Under the pieces are notes generated by a model. That model saw nothing but the letters and a program-made list of their open reading frames with translations. It did not search any database and was not told where the DNA came from. From assembly GCA_038060895.1 (NCBI GenBank), contig JBBTCT010000022.1:320001-384000 (forward strand): 64,000 bases of DNA, written 5' to 3'. Shown here piece by piece: positions 14,502 through 35,422 of this stretch. Made by a program: the position numbers and the translations under genes. Every line of letters begins with the position of its first letter. Position 1 is the stretch's first letter. This stretch comes from Planctomycetota bacterium (GTDB lineage: Bacteria; Planctomycetota; MHYJ01; WSZJ01).

Positions 14502-16136
14502 GTGCGCTACGGCTTCGTTCTCGACCAGGACAAATGCATCGGCTGCCACGCGTGCACGGTCGCGTGCAAGGAAGAGCACAACGTTCCGCTGGGGGTGTTC
14601 CGGACGTACGTGAAGTACGTGGAGAAGGGGAAGTTCCCGGACACGGAGCGGAAGTTCGCGGTCATCCGCTGTAACCAGTGCGACGACGCGCCTTGCATGA
14701 CGATCTGCCCGACCGCCGCGCTTTTCCGCCGCGACAACGGCATCGTCGACTTCGACAAGGACGCGTGCATCGGCTGCAAGGCGTGCATGCAGGCCTGCCC
14801 GTACGACGCGCTCTACATCGACCCGGCGACGCAGACGGCGGCAAAGTGCAACTACTGCGCGCACCGGGTGGAGAAAGGGATGGAGCCCGCGTGCGTGATC
14901 GTGTGTCCCGAGCAGGCGATCATCACGGGGGACCTCGACAATCCTGCGAGCCGCATCTCGACGTACGTTGCGAGCGGGAAGACGACGGTGCGCAAGCCGG
15001 AGAAGGGGACGCGGCCGAAGGTTCACTACAAGGGCGCCGACCCGGCGACGCTGAACCCTTCGCTCACGCACGTCCTCGGCGGCCAGATGTGGGCGGCCGC
15101 GACGGAGAAAGAGGCGACCTTCGCGGCGATGCAGGTGATGGGCCGCGGGCCGGGAAGCGGCGTGCCGCCCCCGATGGACATGGCGCGAACGGTGATGGAC
15201 ACGGCGAAAGAGCGCGCGCCTTGGGGGTGGAAGGTTTGGGCCTACCTGTGGACCAAGTCGATCGCCGCGGGCGCGATGGGCATCGCGGGGGTCGCCGTCG
15301 GCTGCAGTGTGCCGGGAACGGACCGGCTGATGGGCCCAATCGCTTCCGGCATCGCGCTTGTGTTCACGGCACTCACGTGCCTTCTGCTCGTCCTCGACCT
15401 CAAGCGTCCGGAGCGCTTCTACCTCATCCTCACCCGCCCCAACTGGAGTTCCTGGCTCGTCTGGGGGACGCTCGCGCTCATGGCGTTCTCGGGCGTCTGC
15501 GCGTTGTGGTTCGTGGCGTCGCTCGCGGGCTGGACCGGGCTGATGAAGGCTCTCGCGTGGCCCGCTGTCCTGTTCTCGGCCGGGGCGGCGGGATACTCGG
15601 CCTTCCTGTTCAGGCAAGCGAGGGGTCGCGACTTCTGGCTGAGCCCGTTACTGCTCGTGCAGCTTCTCATCGCCGCTGCGCTCGCCGGGGCGGCGACACT
15701 GCTCATCACGCAGCAATTCTTGAATCTCTTCGAACGCGGGTACGTCCCCGAAGTCACCCTTGGAACCCGGTATGCATTCGACTCGCACCGCACATACTCC
15801 AAAGGGGCGCTTGAGAGGGTGCTCCGCACCGGTTGGCTGGAGACCTGCCTCCTGGGATCCCTGCTGGCCCAACTGGTCATTCTCATTGCGGAAGTGGTGG
15901 TGCCCCACGGCAGCGCCGATTCTCGACGCGCCGTCCGTTTGCTGACCCATGGGGCCTGCGCCGCCCCGTTCTGGGGCGCGGCCGTTCTCGGGGGCATTGC
16001 CCTTCCGCTCGCGTTGGTGGCGACTTTCAGGCACGTCGTCGCCGCGGATCTCTTCGCCGCAGCGCTCGCGCTTGCTGGCCTGCTGATCTACGAGCATCTC
16101 TGGATCAAAGTCGGCCAGTCAGTGCCGCTGAGCTAG
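14502..16136 (+). CDS. 4Fe-4S ferredoxin (NrfC/PsrB-like) fused to NrfD/PsrC membrane anchor
   Basis: CIGCHAC, CNQC, CIGCKAC and CNYC clusters, then WGWKV…DLKRPERF…SWLVWG and ~8 TM helices. Confidence 0.92.
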   Translation: MRYGFVLDQDKCIGCHACTVACKEEHNVPLGVFRTYVKYVEKGKFPDTERKFAVIRCNQCDDAPCMTICPTAALFRRDNGIVDFDKDACIGCKACMQACPYDALYIDPATQTAAKCNYCAHRVEKGMEPACVIVCPEQAIITGDLDNPASRISTYVASGKTTVRKPEKGTRPKVHYKGADPATLNPSLTHVLGGQMWAAATEKEATFAAMQVMGRGPGSGVPPPMDMARTVMDTAKERAPWGWKVWAYLWTKSIAAGAMGIAGVAVGCSVPGTDRLMGPIASGIALVFTALTCLLLVLDLKRPERFYLILTRPNWSSWLVWGTLALMAFSGVCALWFVASLAGWTGLMKALAWPAVLFSAGAAGYSAFLFRQARGRDFWLSPLLLVQLLIAAALAGAATLLITQQFLNLFERGYVPEVTLGTRYAFDSHRTYSKGALERVLRTGWLETCLLGSLLAQLVILIAEVVVPHGSADSRRAVRLLTHGACAAPFWGAAVLGGIALPLALVATFRHVVAADLFAAALALAGLLIYEHLWIKVGQSVPLS

Positions 16137-16157
16137 GCGGCTGCGAAGAAGACGAAC

Positions 16158-16256
16158 TTGAGGTTGCAGATTGCAACCTCAAAGCCAGCGTGCCTTTGAA
16201 GTCGCAATTTGCGATTTCAAGTTGGATGGATTTGATATTCCAAATTGGAATATCAA
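16158..16256. repeat. array of three 25-bp palindromes TTGA-N5-CA(A/G)(A/T)TTG-N5-TCAA
   Basis: Units at 16158-16182, 16196-16220 and 16232-16256. Confidence 0.9.
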
Positions 16257-16263
16257 GGCGCAA

Positions 16264-16794
16264 CTACCGCGTCCCATGGAACCCGATCCGCTTCGGCCCG
16301 CGTCCGCGCGGCGGGTTCACGAGCTGGCGGATTGCGGCAAAAATGCCCTGTATCGCCTCGTCGTGGGTGCCGACGCGTCGCTCCAGCTCCGAGAGTTTTC
16401 GCGAGATCTCCTGCTGCGTCGCCACGATCTCGCGCGTACGAATGAAGGCGCGCATGATCGCGATGTTGACGAGGGTGGCGCGATCGCTGCGCAGGACGCT
16501 GGAGAGCATGGCCACCCCGTGCTCGGTGAAGGCGAAAGGGAGGGTTCGGCGTCCACCTCTTCCGTTTGAGGTGCCAATCTGGCACATCAAACCCGAGGCT
16601 TCTTCGTCCGTGAGCCGGAACATGAAATCCGGCGGGAAGCGACCGGCGTTCCGCTTTACCGCCCGGTTGAGGCCGGAAGTCCGGACGCCGTACATCCGGG
16701 CAAGGTCGTTGTCCAGCAGCACCCTCTGTCCGCGAACACGAACGATGAGATGCTCGACACTTTCGACTGGGATCATGACTTTCAGCCCGCTCAT
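16264..16794 (-). CDS. ORF6N domain-containing DNA-binding protein
   Basis: VRGQRVLLDNDLARMYGV, AVKRNAGRFPPDFMFRLT and FTEHGVAMLSSVLRS motifs; GGAGGAG RBS. Confidence 0.93.
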   Translation of the reverse strand: MSGLKVMIPVESVEHLIVRVRGQRVLLDNDLARMYGVRTSGLNRAVKRNAGRFPPDFMFRLTDEEASGLMCQIGTSNGRGGRRTLPFAFTEHGVAMLSSVLRSDRATLVNIAIMRAFIRTREIVATQQEISRKLSELERRVGTHDEAIQGIFAAIRQLVNPPRGRGPKRIGFHGTR

Positions 16795-16923
16795 GCGCTC
16801 CTCCAGGAACTGGAATGGGGAAGTCTCTTCAGCACGAACGGGGCATCGTAGGCACGGAGAGAATTGGAATGCAATCCGTCGCCGGCAGATTTCCTGCGAT
16901 TCGAGCTTGAACGCGCTCCCAAC

Positions 16924-16985
16924 TTGAGATCACAGATTGTGATGTCAAGTCAGGGCGGGACGGGTGGTCGCAGATTGCGACCGCC
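16924..16985. repeat. two further palindromes of the same family upstream of ORF6N
   Basis: TTGAGATCACAGATTGTGATGTCAA (16924-16948) and GGTGGTCGCAGATTGCGACCGCC (16963-16985). Confidence 0.85.
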
Positions 16986-17051
16986 TGCCGCCCGTATCAA
17001 GTCGTCAGAACCGTGATCGCCCCCCGCGCGCCGCATATGATCCGCCTCTCC

Positions 17052-19865
17052 ATGACGCCCCCGAACCCCCAGCCTCTTCACCCCGCCGCGCGCGAACTCG
17101 ACCCGCCGGTCGGAGGGCTCGCGGCGTATCCGCCGGTTGAAAAGTGGGACAACTGGACGGAGTACGACGCGCAGGCGTGGCCGAAGAAGGTGGAGCACAC
17201 GTACTCGCTGGTGCCGACGATCTGCTTCAACTGCGAAGCGGCGTGCGGGTTGCTGGCGTACGTGGACAAGAAGGACGGGAAGATCCAGCGGTTTGAGGGA
17301 AACCCGGAGCATCCGGGGAGTCGCGGGCGGAATTGTGCGAAGGGGCCGGCGACGCTGAACCAGGTGTACGATCCTGAGCGGATTCTTTATCCGCTCAAGC
17401 GGAACGGGAAGCGTGGCGAAGGGAAGTGGAAACGGGTGACGTGGGACGAGGTACTGACGGACATCGGCGGGCGGATCCGGAAGGCGCTGATGGAGAACCG
17501 GCAGCGCGAGATCATGTACCACGTGGGGCGGCCGGGGCACGAGCTGATTTACAACCAGCGGGTGCTGCATGCGTGGGGGATCGACGGGCACAACTCGCAC
17601 ACGAACGTTTGCTCAGCGGGGGCGCGGGCGGGGTACGCGTTCTGGATGGGGATCGACCGGCCTTCGCCGGATCATGCGAACTCGAAGTTCATGCTGCTCC
17701 TGAGCGCGCATCTCGAGACGGGGCATTACTTCAACCCGCACGCGCAGCGGATCATGGAGGCGAAGGAACGCGGCGTGAAGATGGCCGTGATCGACACGCG
17801 TCTCTCGAACACCGCTTCGATGGCCGACTGGTGGCTGCCGACCTGGCCGGGGACGGAAGCGGCGCTGTTGCTGGCGCTCGCGAACGTGATGATCCGCGAC
17901 AAGACGTACGACCGGGAGTTCGTGCGGCGGTGGGTGAACTGGGAAGAGTTCCTGCGCGAGGAGCGGCCGGGCGTTGCCTCGACGTTTGAGGCGTTCGAAG
18001 CGGAGCTGGCGAAGTTGTACGCGGAGTTCACCCCGGAGTACGCCGAGAAGGAATGCGGCGTGCCGGCGAAGACGATCCTCGAGGTCGCGGCCGAGATCGC
18101 GAAGGCGGGGTCGGCGTTCGCGACGCACGTGTGGCGCAACGCGGCGGCGGGAAACCTCGGCGGTTGGCAGGTGTCGCGCGCGCTGGAACTGCTCGTTGTC
18201 CTCGCGGGCGCCGTCGGCACGAACGGCGGCACCGTCCCGAACCAGTGGAACAAGTTCACGCCGAAGCCGCCGCTGATGCCGCCGCCGTCGAAGGTGTGGA
18301 GCGAGCTGCTCTACCCGAAGGAGTACCCTCTCGCGTTTTTCGAGATGTCGTTCCTGCTGCCGCATTTCCTGAAAGAAGGTCGCGGCAAGCTCGATACGTA
18401 TTTCACGCGCGTCTACAACCCCGTGTGGACTAACCCCGACGGCATGACGTGGCTCGAGGTCCTCACCGACGAGTCGAAAGTCGGATGCCACGTGTGCCTC
18501 TCGCCGACGTGGAGCGAGACCGCGTGGTACGCGGACTACGTGCTCCCGATGGGCCACGGCTCCGAGCGCCACGACCTCATGAGCCAGGAGACGCACGCGG
18601 CCAAGTGGATCGGCTTCCGCCAGCCGGTGCAGCGCGTGTGGCTCGAAAAACAGGGGAAAAAATTCAACTCGACCTGGGAAGCGCACGAAGCGTCCGGCCT
18701 CGGCCAGGTCTGGGAAGAAGAAGAGTTCTGGATCGAGCTGTCGTGGAAGATCGATCCCGACGGCGCGCTCGGCATCCGCAAGTACTTCGAGTCGCCCTTC
18801 GAGCCTGGCAAGAAGATGGAAATCTCCGAGTTCTACCGGTGGATCTTCGAGAACAGCGTGCCGGGGCTGCCGGAGAAGGCGAAGAAGGAGGGACTGACGC
18901 CGCTGGAGTTCATGCGCAAGTACGGCGCGTTCCTGGTCTCGGAGGGGACGGTGCTGGGGCACGAGCAGGCCGTGCCGAGCGAGGGCGCGACGACGGACCC
19001 CGTGACGAAAGTCGTCTCGAAATCCGGTGCGCCCGTCGGCGTCGAAATCGACGGGAAGCCGCTCGCCGGATTCCCGACGCCGTCGCGCAAGCTCGAGTTC
19101 TACTCGAAGACGCTCAAGGACTGGAAATGGCCGGAGCACGCGCTCCCCGGCTACATCAGGAGCCACGTCCACCCTTCGAATTTCGACATCGCGAAGGGCG
19201 AGATGCTCCTCCTGCCGACCTTCCGCCTCCCGACGCTCATCCACACGCGTACCGGCAACGCGAAATGGCTCATCGAGCTCTCGCACTCCAACCCGCTCTG
19301 GCTCAACACCGGCGACGCGGCGCGCTTCAAGGTGGGCATGGGACACCTCCTCAAGGTCCACACGGAGATCGGGTGGTTCATCGACAAGGTCTGGGTGACC
19401 GAAGCGATCCGCCCGGGCGTCGTCGCGTGCTCGCACCACATCGGGCGGTGGCGCGTGATTGAGGAGCAGGCCGGGAAATGGTGCACCGCGCTCGTTGACC
19501 TGAAGGAGCAGTCGGCGGGGAAGTGGAAGATGCGCCACATCCACGGCGTGCAGCCCTTCAAGAGCAGTGACCCCGACTCCGAGCGCATCTCGTGGACGGA
19601 TGCGGGTGTGCACCAGAACCTGACGTTCCCCGTCCAGCCCGACCCGATTAGCGGGCAGCACTGCTGGCACCAGAAGGTGCGCGTCGAGAAGCCCGCGGCC
19701 GGCGACAAGTACGGGGATATCTTCGTCGATACGGCGAAGTCGATGGAGGTGTACCGTCGGTGGCTCCAACTCGCGCGGCCGGCTCCGGGGCCGGGAGGAC
19801 TTCGGCGGCCACGGTGGCTGCCGCGGGCGTACATGCCGGCGAAGGAGACGTACGAAATCCGGTGA
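17052..19865 (+). CDS. molybdopterin (Mo-bisPGD) oxidoreductase catalytic subunit
   Basis: CFNCEAAC…NCAKG 4Fe-4S, RILYPLKR, ADYVLP, TPSRKLEF and C-terminal dinucleotide-binding domain; no Tat signal seen. Confidence 0.92.
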   Translation: MTPPNPQPLHPAARELDPPVGGLAAYPPVEKWDNWTEYDAQAWPKKVEHTYSLVPTICFNCEAACGLLAYVDKKDGKIQRFEGNPEHPGSRGRNCAKGPATLNQVYDPERILYPLKRNGKRGEGKWKRVTWDEVLTDIGGRIRKALMENRQREIMYHVGRPGHELIYNQRVLHAWGIDGHNSHTNVCSAGARAGYAFWMGIDRPSPDHANSKFMLLLSAHLETGHYFNPHAQRIMEAKERGVKMAVIDTRLSNTASMADWWLPTWPGTEAALLLALANVMIRDKTYDREFVRRWVNWEEFLREERPGVASTFEAFEAELAKLYAEFTPEYAEKECGVPAKTILEVAAEIAKAGSAFATHVWRNAAAGNLGGWQVSRALELLVVLAGAVGTNGGTVPNQWNKFTPKPPLMPPPSKVWSELLYPKEYPLAFFEMSFLLPHFLKEGRGKLDTYFTRVYNPVWTNPDGMTWLEVLTDESKVGCHVCLSPTWSETAWYADYVLPMGHGSERHDLMSQETHAAKWIGFRQPVQRVWLEKQGKKFNSTWEAHEASGLGQVWEEEEFWIELSWKIDPDGALGIRKYFESPFEPGKKMEISEFYRWIFENSVPGLPEKAKKEGLTPLEFMRKYGAFLVSEGTVLGHEQAVPSEGATTDPVTKVVSKSGAPVGVEIDGKPLAGFPTPSRKLEFYSKTLKDWKWPEHALPGYIRSHVHPSNFDIAKGEMLLLPTFRLPTLIHTRTGNAKWLIELSHSNPLWLNTGDAARFKVGMGHLLKVHTEIGWFIDKVWVTEAIRPGVVACSHHIGRWRVIEEQAGKWCTALVDLKEQSAGKWKMRHIHGVQPFKSSDPDSERISWTDAGVHQNLTFPVQPDPISGQHCWHQKVRVEKPAAGDKYGDIFVDTAKSMEVYRRWLQLARPAPGPGGLRRPRWLPRAYMPAKETYEIR

Positions 19866-31958: not shown

Positions 31959-34900
31959 TTACTTCAACACCAACCCCTTAATGTTGTAGTACTTCGCCTC
32001 CGGGTGATGCGCCACGATCGCGCATGTGCTCTGCTCCGGAACGATCTGGAACGCGCTGGTGAGCGAGCAGCCGATCGCCTTCTCTGCGTCGAGCAACCCG
32101 AAGATCTTCTCGTTGTCGGCGAGGTCCGGGCACGCCGGATAACCCGGCGAGTACCGTTTCCCCCCGCCGTGCTGCATGCCGAACTCGGCTTTGAACCGGC
32201 GGTGGAGCCACTCGGCCATGGCCTCCGCGGTCTCGACCGCCAAGCCGTGCAGGTAGTAGCTCTTCGAGTACTCGCCCTTCGCGTTGAGCGCGTCGCAGAG
32301 CTCGGTCGCTCTCGCGCCGACCGTCACGCACTGGAACCCGATGACGTCCAGCCGGTCCGGGTCCCAGTAATCGACCAGGCAAAGCCGCTCGCCGTCGGGC
32401 TGTCTCGGCCAGTCGAAGCGACACCGTTCCTTCTTCGGGTCCTCGGGGTCGAAGACGACGAGCTGGGAGTCGCGGACCTGGCACGGGAAGAAGCCGTAGA
32501 CGGCGCGGGGCTGGAACCATTTCTCCTGCAGGGCCTCCGCCTCCATCTTCACGAGGAGCGGCTCGAATTCTTCCTTGATGATGTTGACGACGTCCTTGGC
32601 GGACTTGCCGTGGCCGCCCCAGCTCAGTCGGAAGAGGCTCTTCTTGTCGATGAGCGGGAAGACCTCGCGCAGGTCGATGTTCGCGACGGTCTGGTTGCCC
32701 CAGAACGGCGGGACGGGGATGTGCTGCGCGGGTTTGACGGCGCGCGGAGCGCTCGACGCCGCGGTATTCACTTCCGGCGCAGGACCTCTTCCCGCCTCGA
32801 GGTCGAGCAGCGCGCGGACTTCCTTGTGGTTCTTCTCGACGCGTTCCTTGTTTTTCGCCGGGATGACGAGGTCGTTCATCGCGTCGAGGCCGGTGAAGGC
32901 GTCGGTGCAGTAGAAGACGCCGGAGCCGTAAAAGCGGCCGTCTTCGAGGACGCAGGCTTTCTTGCCGAAGCGGCTGTTGATGGCGGCGCCGCCGATGATC
33001 ACCGGGATTTTCAGCCCGTGCTTGTCGAGTTCCTGGACGCAGTAGGGCATCTGCTTGCTCGTGCTGACGAGAAGCGCTGACAGACCGATCGCATTGGCGT
33101 TGGTTTCCTTGGCCTTGGCGATGAAGTTCTGTACGGGGACCTGTTTGCCCAGGTCGTGCACGGTGTAGCCGTTGTTCGTGAGGATCGTCTTCACGAGGTT
33201 CTTGCCGATGTCGTGGACGTCGCCGTACACGGTGCCGAGGACGATGGTGCCCTTGGAGTACGTGTCGGACTTGTCCATGAACTTCTCGAGGTAGGCGACG
33301 GACTTCTTCATGACCTCGGCGCTCTGCAGCACGAAGGGCAGGATCAGCTCGCCCGTCGCCATCCGGTCGCCGACTTCCTTCATGGCGCCGAGCAGGACCT
33401 CGTTGATCACGCCGACGGGGGAGTACTTCTTGAGCGCCTGGTCGAGAAGCGCCTCGAGGTCTTCGTGAATGCGGTTGAGAATATTGAAGTGAAGCTGTTC
33501 CTCGACGGTCAGGGCGTGCGTCGGCTTCGGCGCGGACTTCTTTTTGGACTTCGTCTTCTCGAAGTACTCGATGAACTTCGCGAGCGCGTCGGGATAGCGG
33601 TTGAAGACGAGGTTTTCGGCGAGCTCGCGCTCGTTCTCGGGGATGGACGGGTAGGGGAGGATCTCGTTGGGGTGGACGAGGGCGATGTCGAGGCCGGCGT
33701 GCACGCAATGAGTGAGGAAGACGCTGTTGAGGACCGCGCGGCGTGCGGCGCCAGGCCGAACGATACGTTGGAGACGCCCAGGCCCGTCAGCGCGCCGGGG
33801 AGCTTGTCCTTGATCTTGCGGATCGCCTCGATCGTTGCCGTCGCGCTGTCGATGTACTCCGGCGAACCGGTCGCCAGCGTGAAGGTCAGGCAGTCGAAGA
33901 TCAGCGCTTCCGGCGGAACGCCGTGGTCGTCGCGGGCCATGTCGCACATCCGGCGCGCGACGTCGAACTTGCGGTCGGCCGTGATGGCCATGCCCTGCTC
34001 GTCGATCGTCATGGCGATCGTCGCCGCGCCGTACTCCTTCACCATCGGCATCACGCGGTTCCAGCGCTCGTGGCCCTTTTCAAGGTTTACCGAGTTCACG
34101 ATCACGCGCCCCGGATAGATCTTCATCGCTTCGTTGATGACGTCGTACTCGGTCGAGTCGATGACGATCGGCGCGTCGACGGCGTGGGCGAGTTTCCTGA
34201 GAAGCGTCGTCATCTGGTGCTTCTCGTCGTCGCGCTCGTTCAGGGCGACGCAGATGTCGAGCGCGTGCGAGCCGCCTTCGACCTGCGCGCGGGCGATCTG
34301 GATGATGGACGCCCAGTCGTCCTTGATCAGCAGCTCCTTGAGCTTGCGGGAGCCTTGCGCGTTCACGCGCTCGCCGACGAGCATGGGTTTGGGGTACTGG
34401 TGAAGAGGCACGGACTTCATCATCGAGCTGATCGCCGGCTCGTAGGGGACCGTGCGCGCGATCGGCCTCAGCCCCTTCACGCGCTCGGACAGCAGCTTGA
34501 TGTGCTCGTACGTCGTGCCGCAGCAGCCGCCTGCGATCGAAATGCCGCGCGACTTCACGAACTCTTCCATCGCGTCGGCGAATTCCTTCGGGCCGAGCGG
34601 GTAGACCGCGTCGCCGGTGCCTTCGTTCGCGGGGATGCCGGCGTTCGGCATGATCGAGATCGGGATTGGCGATTTTTCGCAGAGGTACGCGACCGAGTCG
34701 CGCATCTCTTCGGGGCCGGTCGAGCAGTTGAGGCCGATGATGTCGGCGCCGAGGCACTGCAGCGTCGTGAGCGAAGCTCCGATGTCCGTGCCGAGCAGCA
34801 TGCGCCCGGTCCGGTCGAGCGTGACCTGCGCCATGATCGGGAGGCGCCGGCCGGATTCCTTCTGCCACCGGCGGATCGCGAAGATCTGCGCCTTGACCTC

Positions 34901-35422
34901 GAGGATGTCCTGCGAGGTCTCGATGAGGAACGCGTCGGCGCCGCCGTCGGCGAGGCCGCGGACCTGGGCGATGAAGCCTTCCACGATCTTGTCGAACGCG
35001 ATGTTGCCGAGCGACGGGTCTTCCGATGAAGGCAGGTACCCCGACGGCCCGATCGACCCGGCGACGAACTTCGGCGCCCCCTGCTTCGAGTACCGGTCGC
35101 ACGCCGCCCGCGCCAGCTTCGCCGCCGTCACGTTCTGGTCGTACGTCCGCTCGCCCACCTTGTACTCGTCCATCTTGAACCAATTCGACCCGAACGTGTT
35201 CGTCTCGACGCCGTCGGCCCCCGCTTCGAGGTACTTCTCGTGGATCTCCCGGATCACATCGGGCTTCGTCTGGCAGAGCCAGTCGTTGCACCCTTCCATC
35301 CCCGGCCCGCCGAAATCGGCCGCCTTGAACTTGTAGCGCTGCAACGTCGTCCCCATGGCGCCGTCCCACACGAGGACGCGCGTTTTGAGGGTTTCGAGCA
35401 GGGAGGGGCGGTCGTTCGTCAC
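31959..35422 (-). pseudogene. metH: B12-dependent methionine synthase, split by a 1-nt frameshift near 33740 (pseudogene or sequence error)
   Basis: DGAMGT, GGCCGT, GERVN and GVSNVSFG in ORF 33509-35422; VLNSVFL, GDVHDIGKNLV and RYSPGYPACPD in ORF 31959-33947. Confidence 0.9.

Follow-up and report, generated by a model that had tools for sequence, protein, structure and literature searches.

Why should a small gene for a DNA-binding protein carry a long palindrome inside its own coding sequence, and why should further palindromes of the same design surround it? The question is raised by an ORF6N gene in a 64,000-nucleotide stretch of DNA, hereafter the window, from a Planctomycetota bacterium (assembly GCA_038060895.1, contig JBBTCT010000022.1, forward-strand positions 320,001 to 384,000). 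A preliminary description of the window had noticed six covarying units at this gene, and had proposed either that the flanking units are donor cassettes swapped into the gene to diversify one segment of its product, or that the protein has its target hairpins encoded in and around its own gene, in the manner of repetitive extragenic palindromic (REP) sequences and their associated transposase genes (RAYT). All six units are present between 16158 and 16986, one inside the coding sequence and five in the flanks, each a 25-bp palindrome with a CA-NNN-TG core and with 9-12 of 12 arm pairs complementary, which is the score used throughout; the last of them extends on both sides beyond the 23-bp core first quoted (Table 1). 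The translations given for them are likewise correct, on the plus strand for the flanking units and on the minus strand for the internal one. We find that the internal palindrome belongs to the whole ORF6N family and is maintained as DNA, and we tentatively read it as a site for the gene's own product.

The clustering of palindromes at the window ORF6N gene is far from chance. On its own the heptamer CARWTTG shows no enrichment across the window, with 16 matches where 13.7 are expected and 37 of 100 shuffles reaching that count, but eight of these 16 matches, at six sites, fall in the 830 bp at the gene. Across the source genome (G000; 5,418,064 bases, 65.8% G+C) the heptamer matches 647 times, and at only 10 sites are nine or more of the 12 flanking pairs complementary. 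Six of these lie at the window locus (L001), one in the sole other PF10543 gene of the genome, on contig C24, and three on contigs C8, C11 and C12, where they are unrelated to ORF6N. The specificity for ORF6N loci that had been suspected is thus found in this genome at both of its ORF6N genes, with three unrelated sites besides. The second gene (L002, C24 positions 1396-1992) holds a perfect 25-mer at 1663-1687, with AACCGG outer arms and reading NRSQIATG, and is devoid of flank copies.

The internal palindrome is not peculiar to the window locus; it is near-universal in the ORF6N family and independent of reading frame. Loci were drawn from 61 related genomes (39 with the family), from one genome per bacterial species, from viral contigs and from metagenome contigs, including 80 loci across bacteria (at least 15 phylum-level labels), 80 viral and 80 metagenomic ones. 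The peptide pattern RN..RFP ... FTE.G recovered 259 genes, 231 of them unique, in 271 loci, and the best 25-bp palindrome between the two motifs was scored. Among the unique genes, which come from many phyla and from phages, 219 of 231 reach 10 or more of 12 pairs at a shared coding position and 227 reach nine or more, whereas none of 303 size-matched control windows in the same open frames reaches 10 and only 16 reach nine. The pattern missed 19 of the first 191 loci, which are therefore left out of these counts; 18 of the 19 all have a palindrome of 9-12 pairs at the same position (nine in 12 near-identical phage loci), and the remaining one, L010, has an internal stop codon and a perfect palindrome. 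The internal copy is lost only in L030 and L061, both of which keep perfect upstream copies, and L026 and L189 have eight pairs.

Inside the ORF6N gene the palindrome, with arms of 11-12 bp on either side of an A/T-rich centre, is maintained at the level of DNA. In reading frame 0 the 25-mer takes the form TTG AGG TCA CAA ATT GTG ACC TCA A, such that second codon positions pair with the third positions of the partner codon, and the codons keep company by complementarity: Ser-TCA occurs with Val-GTG 81 times and Ser-TCG with Ala-GCG 42 times, with four exceptions, and there are 28 pairs of Gly-GGC with Cys-TGC, 23 of Gly-GGA with Phe-TTC, 157 of Leu-TTG with Ser-TCA and 15 of Leu-TTA with Leu-TTA. 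Little beyond the first codon base is shared by the residues found at codon 3 (S, C, F, Y, L), or by those at codon 2 (R, K, M, I, T). When the codons were redrawn synonymously, with the peptide fixed and the gene's own codon usage, mean pairing fell from the 11.03 pairs observed to 5.22, and fewer than 5% of redraws reached the observed pairing in every one of 207 genes. Over 149 distinct coding copies, 89.1% of cells are paired, against 69.0% in shuffles and 23-44% in slid registers. The compensatory change in the inner arms claimed for the window is confirmed across the collection, with a covariation score of 0.509 in the 149 coding copies (0.155 in shuffles) and of 0.475 in 44 non-coding copies (0.174 in shuffles), neither of which was reached in 500 shuffles. 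Rare codons such as TTG and TCA are used in the palindrome in a genome of 66% G+C.

The same element is moreover translated in two frames, frame 0 in 207 genes (LRSQ[IF][VAG]TS types) and frame +1 in 20 (E[LV]V[TA]NCD[HR][LF] types). The 25-mers of L002 and L100 differ at a single base and read NRSQIATG and ELVANCDRF, respectively, and the two frames rejoin before LPYAFTEQG; because a near-identical 25-mer is read in two frames, the two peptide classes are two translations of one DNA element. The likeness of the window units to LRSQxxTS and VVANCDHL peptides of homologues, proposed in the preliminary description, is seen in real homologues, and the flanking units resemble both peptide types since both are frames of the same palindrome. 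The GGTGG-type unit upstream of the window gene is of the type that the frame +1 subfamily carries in its coding sequence, and its reading VVADCDRL is the beginning of a mechanical open reading frame (ORF) at 16964-17140. Variants of the outer arms, as in L005, L008, L020, L025, L033 and others, are matched by altered flanking residues: L...L(K) for TTA...TAA, W...S(N) for TGG...CCA and S...L(K) for TCA...TGA. Base pairing thus sets the residues on either side of the motif as well.

Synonymous and non-synonymous covariation, the use of two frames and residues that share only their first codon base together indicate that the DNA element outranks the protein sequence that it overlaps. The conserved motif LRSQ[IF][VAG]TS or VVANCDHL is accordingly a shadow of a nucleic-acid constraint, which affects how domain alignments, motif logos and estimates of the ratio of non-synonymous to synonymous substitution (dN/dS) are to be read in the ORF6N and Bro-N families. 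ORF6N and Bro-N rank with the most frequent small genes that phages, prophages and defence islands carry and whose mechanism is unknown, and the element offers a concrete, testable handle on what their products recognise.

Roughly one locus in five carries further copies outside the coding sequence, usually a short way upstream of the start codon. In the first 191 loci (733,943 bases) there are 228 motif palindromes, 170 at the coding position and 58 elsewhere, eight of the latter being coding copies in loci that the peptide pattern missed. Of 153 unique genes, 29 are preceded by a copy, whose distance to the start codon varies but is mostly 12-130 nt. Flank copies accompany 39 of the 170 genes whose flanks are complete and whose internal palindrome has at least 10 pairs, and the other 131 have none; the 39 comprise 26 with upstream and 16 with downstream copies, counts that overlap and include some tandem neighbours. 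The upstream pair of the window, a distal GGTGG type and a proximal TTGA type, recurs in L014, in L096 and in L021, the orthologue of the window locus in genome G002. One locus holds up to five different inner arms, each complementary, and because of this it is complementarity itself that appears to matter, not the identity of the bases in the middle arm. Coding and flank copies paired within a locus agree in the inner triplet 11 times out of 46, with 10.2 agreements expected by chance, and overall arm similarity within a locus is only marginally raised (15.83 against 15.22 of 22 positions, reached by 51 of 2000 permutations).

The pattern TTGA-N5-CA-N3-TG-N5-TCAA occurs at 68 sites in the 61 related genomes, at 0-5 sites per genome, and only three times as a reversed control; most of the 68 are at ORF6N genes and three are non-palindromic chance matches. 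A few sites are orphans. Three loci have such palindromes with no ORF6N gene within 1.5 kb: one (L313, G041:C557 774-798) lies directly downstream of an HsdM-like methylase gene; another (L300, G042:C294 1480-1525) consists of two overlapping palindromes after an ATPase-like ORF; and a pair (L309, G004:C108 1544-1608) adjoins the flank of a position at which the sister species G001 has an ORF6N gene. A further orphan lies downstream of a Bro-N gene (L290/L333).

A second Pfam family shares the feature. In the Bro-N (PF02498) subfamily marked by IRKxIHxNEWWF ... SIPSPKAEPFKRWLA, an equivalent palindrome lies 105-148 nt into the domain. Pairing is at least 10/12 in 16 of the relatives' 30 Bro-N loci (L331-L360), the remainder being other Bro-N subfamilies, and in 66 of 70 unique loci from phage contigs (within L361-L440), all 70 of which have at least nine; none of 67 control windows reaches 10. 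Here too the palindrome is read in two frames, as GWVQIVHT and as E[TLV]VTNCH[RGQ]LK, even between proteins that are about 60% identical, and some members have a different core, CGATAATATCG, with palindromy kept. The feature was absent from the eight Rha-family genes above cut-off that were examined. The roi gene of HK022 (L461, record 34619-35377), with a Rha-like N-terminus, has only a 9/12 palindrome at about 35136-35160 of the record, possibly the Roi site within the gene that a paper of 1996 reportedly describes.

The protein encoded at the window locus matches PF10543 over residues 17-100 (109.2 bits against a cut-off of 27.8; profile positions 3-86 of 86), and ORF6N is the only Pfam domain found in it, with no HUH/Y1 (Y1_Tnp) domain. 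In its AlphaFold2 model, which has a mean predicted local distance difference test (pLDDT) score of 81.1, the palindrome encodes a low-confidence loop (block pLDDT 64 and 58, residues 69-74 below 50) between a helix at 58-63 and a strand at 82-85, followed by long C-terminal helices at 99-139 and 141-154. This loop tolerates both frames and in-frame tandem duplicates: two or three in-frame palindromes occur in it in several genes, including L006, L018, L028, L036, L073, L101 and L140. A sequence search of solved structures returned nothing relevant (best E 0.23, a coiled-coil match). The protein matches PHROG 4792, 'anti-repressor' (E 3.7e-26), and three PADLOC models of PDC-S05, a candidate single-gene phage defence (PDLC04869, E 9.1e-51; PDLC04856, E 2.5e-48; PDLC04849, E 3.4e-35). 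One PDC-S05 representative, described as carrying a RhuM domain, lowered the plating of phages T7 and T5 about 1000-fold, and the passages on PDC-S05 mention neither a palindrome nor a mechanism (bioRxiv 10.1101/2024.09.26.614923).

Gene and palindromes came into the window together, as one insertion. The insert lies between the stop of an FeS/NrfD-like gene, which ends at 16136, and the probable start (ATG at 17052) of the molybdopterin oxidoreductase gene; these two genes abut, with 0-12 nt from stop to start, in five relatives (G006, of the same genus, G008, G009, G012 and G013), and an insert between them is present only in G000 and G002. A second site that differs between species of the genus, the L030 locus, carries an insert in G003, G002, G004 and G006 and lacks it in G001 and G000; this insert, of about 830 bp, consists of the gene with its upstream region and two palindromes upstream, which lie on one side only. 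The outermost palindromes at the two sites are 12-66 nt from the insert edges; neither site showed a target duplication or a terminal (inverted) repeat, and the empty sites have no palindrome in either comparison. The 120 ORFs neighbouring ORF6N genes match 137 Pfam families, mostly housekeeping, the commonest being N6_Mtase (4); no conserved partner gene was found among them, and no transposase or integrase in the cassette or conserved nearby. The unit is a small, solitary, mobile cassette that encodes an ORF6N DNA-binding protein.

What, then, are the palindromes for? The reading that we favour, to which we give a little less than an even chance, is that they are cis-acting sites, able to form hairpins or a cruciform, that are recognised by the gene's own, probably dimeric product; of the two options first proposed, that of hairpin targets in and around the protein's own gene is the leading one. 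The two-fold symmetric sites would be capable of extrusion and would be bound through the N-terminal DNA-binding domain of the protein, which the long C-terminal helix of the model probably dimerises. What the protein recognises would be the conserved outer TTGA/TCAA, the T7/A19 pair, the CA/TG further in and the stem's shape, and the variable middle positions of the arms would matter only by remaining complementary. A read-out of structure over sequence is suggested by the chance-level match between coding and flank copies, and by the Bro-N members that keep palindromy despite a change of core. Sites upstream, inside the gene and past its stop could let the protein control or mark its own cassette, for example through autoregulation by roadblock or loop, and a site within the coding sequence would keep site and protein inseparable when the cassette moves. 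Such self-recognition, if true, would explain the lasting linkage of site and reader in a minimal mobile cassette.

Several observations sit uneasily with self-recognition. Extra copies are absent at about four fifths of loci, and because of this an upstream operator is not a general requirement; where upstream copies exist their distances vary, and in the window a consensus scan found no promoter. Many of the phage sequences in the sample are close kin, and the non-coding copies were chosen by palindromy, so that their percentage of paired positions is not independent and only the diversity of pair types is informative. A Foldseek comparison of the model with the PDB gave no informative relative (best E 0.36, with weak MarR-like rows). 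The physical form of the site is also in dispute: positions 12 and 14 pair in 30 of the 44 non-coding copies, and complementarity that often reaches the centre fits a dimer site in duplex DNA better than a hairpin loop, whereas middle positions that are free but compensated fit a hairpin better.

Among other explanations, the palindrome could act as a hairpin in messenger RNA (mRNA), whether as a translational pause between domain halves, in autogenous translational control, or as a stabiliser or terminator of the transcript. Its stem is strong (the internal copy folded as DNA gives -12.3 kcal/mol, z = -4.4), it is located between two halves that are structured in the model, some upstream copies are 12-21 nt before the start codon, where a hairpin in the 5' untranslated region could act, and the outermost downstream copy of the window resembles a terminator on the gene strand. 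An RNA-level element is nonetheless not favoured, because mismatches show no excess of G-U pairs (5 of 31 in non-coding copies), AAT and ATT centres are about equally frequent (52 and 47) and no Rfam family matches (the best, a plant microRNA family, has E 0.063 and 26.3 bits against a gathering score of 67); in L024, L029 and L030, moreover, the upstream palindrome is separated from the start by -35/-10-like boxes, identified by eye, which would put that palindrome outside the mRNA. We regard the RNA account as unlikely, and equally improbable is one in which the palindromes are recombination or mobility sites, hairpin ends for a recombinase acting in trans or for a replication-linked process, as in IS200/IS605, REP or attC. 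The insertion of the cassette at two independent sites with its own palindromes near the insert edges would suit such a role, as would the scattering of ORF6N genes singly among housekeeping genes, their tandem arrays in L053, L090 and L107, and the palindromes that remain without an ORF6N gene, as at G004:C108. Against it stand the insertion sites that show neither target duplication nor terminal repeat, the palindrome-free empty ones, the want of a transposase or integrase noted above, and the internal copy as the sole one at most loci; a maximum chi-square scan, furthermore, placed 13 of 157 significant breakpoints within 0-89 nt of the palindrome, with no clustering there. The breakpoints cluster at gene ends, and several apparent matches are alignment artefacts of genes with two or three palindromes. 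The arrays of L053, L090, L107 and L063 contain two to four ORF6N genes, and that of L107 mixes frame 0 and frame +1 palindromes; because the 3' halves of its adjacent genes are nearly identical, gene conversion is suggested in this array.

The site might instead be read by another protein, such as a host nucleoid or repair factor, a cruciform-cutting enzyme, or the nuclease or regulator of a competing element with a related KilA-N-like domain. Variable positions that go unmatched between the copies of one locus are consistent with this, as are the Bro-N genes with the same kind of site and the GGTGG-type sites upstream of TTGA-type genes (L001, L021, L014, L096), which would fit cross-talk between paralogues; but the palindrome is strictly associated with the genes of one protein superfamily, and because of that association the simplest reader is that superfamily's own domain, so that we hold a foreign reader to be distinctly unlikely. 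The same low standing goes to a functionless origin, in which an ancestral quasi-palindrome is kept perfect by template-switch (hairpin-templated) mutation and a tolerant loop follows. Template-switch mutation is established for quasi-palindromes; it would symmetrise the arms without selection, mimicking compensatory change, and the loop does tolerate two frames and duplications. It sits poorly, however, with a palindrome that 219 of 231 genes from many phyla and from phages retain and that a second Pfam family shares, with the rare codons, with the independent non-coding copies kept in cassettes, and with upstream copies that remain where the internal copy is lost. Least credible of all, and in our estimation very improbable, is the donor-cassette idea, under which flank units are swapped into the coding palindrome to diversify a protein segment. 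It can call on the TTCC- and TGCC-type palindromes, which have apparently exchanged places between the coding sequence and the first downstream position in G000 and G002, a single anecdote. The palindromic segment is not hypervariable, and the idea is not supported for that reason: in 33 close pairs (flank identity at least 85%), mostly related phage genes, the palindrome is 97-100% identical and the flanks 87-98%, with the variable arm positions identical. Triplet matching within loci is at chance level, four fifths of loci have no donor copies, and no reverse transcriptase or recombinase was found in the scan of the cassette protein or among neighbours. Nor did read data lend it substance: in contigs of four runs (two DNA, two RNA), whose uncovered parts are uninformative, no credible variant at the level of reads or contigs, and no variant or joint assignable to this organism, was found. 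The joints seen there have sides of 20-33 letters at 85% likeness and are probably from other ORF6N genes, the RNA contigs of the two runs covered only 15900-16122 of this organism, in the neighbouring gene, and the best match of metagenome contigs to the window locus is only 60% identical, which precludes a population-level comparison.

Set beside known systems, the cassette invites several partial comparisons. REP/RAYT systems combine a small HUH/Y1 gene with short, hairpin-capable palindromic repeats in tens to hundreds of extragenic copies. The window gene is likewise flanked by hairpin-capable palindromes, spaced 36-38 bp in intergenic space as in arrays of bacterial interspersed mosaic elements (BIME), and by analogy its repeats are presumed to be recognised by the gene's own product; its protein, however, has no HUH/Y1 domain, the palindromes are not spread through the genome (seven copies in G000, all at its two ORF6N genes) and the key copy is inside the coding sequence, so that the REP/RAYT-like unit first proposed survives as an analogy only. 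Elements of the IS200/IS605 group, which have a Y1 transposase, sometimes TnpB, and defined subterminal hairpins on either end, are brought to mind by a unit of about 0.7-0.9 kb with a single small gene, hairpins near its ends and solitary insertions; the ORF6N protein is unrelated to theirs, with no Y1/TnpB domain and no catalytic motif identified, and the two filled/empty sites show no defined ends or target site, with one-sided palindromes at the second. Integron cassettes, which carry attC at their 3' end beside an integron integrase, differ in that the neighbours here are housekeeping genes, with no integrase among the 25 most frequent of the 137 neighbour Pfam families, and the ORF6N palindrome, compared with attC in outline, has a 3-nt centre and perfect arms. 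Diversity-generating and donor-cassette systems are set apart by a segment that is here more conserved than its flanks and by the 131 of 170 genes with no flank copy. For an autoregulated dimeric DNA-binding protein with a palindromic operator, palindromic sites close to the gene's own start would be expected; 29 of 153 unique genes have them, at variable distances, and the others do not.

Further parallels are the binding sites of a protein within its own gene, such as parS within spo0J/parB and the pT181 origin within repC; Roi of HK022, too, reportedly binds within roi. There, as by analogy here, a palindromic or hairpin site within the binder's own coding sequence links site and gene, whereas the ORF6N site is kept at one codon position superfamily-wide, in two frames and with compensatory arms. 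The palindromic elements of Rickettsia are similarly palindromic DNA that is translated and tolerated in a surface loop; those are inserted in frame into many unrelated genes, and the ORF6N palindrome is confined to one protein superfamily and one domain position. With PDC-S05 the window protein shares its three model matches, but the window copy is situated in an oxidoreductase operon and not in a defence island. A literature search, with most subscription journals outside its reach, found no description of such an ORF6N palindrome.

A broader proposal, which is possible but which we consider more doubtful than not, is that the KilA-N-like domain of ORF6N and of part of Bro-N forms, with a hairpin or cruciform site made of its own loop codons, a self-referential gene-and-site module in which a protein recognises the structure of its own gene. 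Self-recognition in such a module would have kept the palindrome across phyla, phages, two Pfam families and two frames, and the module may underlie self-regulation of the cassette, its movement, or discrimination of self from foreign in phage defence.

Table 1. Features of the ORF6N cassette in the window (pairs are complementary arm pairs out of 12).
Feature	Position	Strand	Remarks
Inserted cassette (ORF6N gene and palindromes)	16137-17051		about 915 bp; from filled/empty comparison of relatives
Downstream non-coding copy 3, outermost	16158-16182		11/12 pairs; 21 nt from left insert edge
Downstream non-coding copy 2	16196-16220		11/12 pairs; inner arms TCGC/GCGA
Downstream non-coding copy 1	16232-16256		12/12 pairs, perfect; inner arms TTCC/GGAA; begins 7 nt past stop codon
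ORF6N gene	16264-16794	-	176 aa; PF10543, E 1.2e-31
Internal coding palindrome TTGATGTGCCAGATTGGCACCTCAA (gene strand)	16566-16590	-	10/12 pairs; reads LMCQIGTS; encodes start of low-confidence loop
Conserved non-coding block upstream of start codon	16835-16914	-	about 85-90% identical, L001 vs L021
Upstream non-coding copy, TTGA type	16924-16948		10/12 pairs; ends 129 nt ahead of start codon
Upstream non-coding copy, GGTGG type	16962-16986		9/12 pairs; 23-bp core 16963-16985

Some further details concern the window cassette itself. As single-stranded DNA, the three-copy downstream array folds at -29 kcal/mol (z = -7.0); its outermost copy resembles a minus-strand terminator in having a 12-pair stem and a T-rich tail, TTCGTCTTCT, and the stem of the GGTGG-type copy reaches about 18 pairs in an extended fold with its flanking GGGCGG/CCGCCC. 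The flanking genes of G000 and G002 are about 93-96% identical, the conserved block in front of the gene and the cassette's non-coding parts about 85-90% and the ORF6N coding sequence about 70%. In a cassette whose frame is conserved, the coding part thus appears to have evolved fast or to have undergone allelic replacement. The conserved block is presumably a regulatory region. A sigma-70 consensus scan found no promoter-like site in this block and no promoter in the window, and a TTGCAT/TACGAT pair was rejected as a promoter, with only 3 of 6 matches in its first hexamer. Some 65 bp between the GGTGG palindrome and the oxidoreductase start (16987-17051) are well conserved between G000 and G002, and because the insert splits the operon and is antisense to it, this stretch might supply expression signals for the downstream molybdopterin gene.

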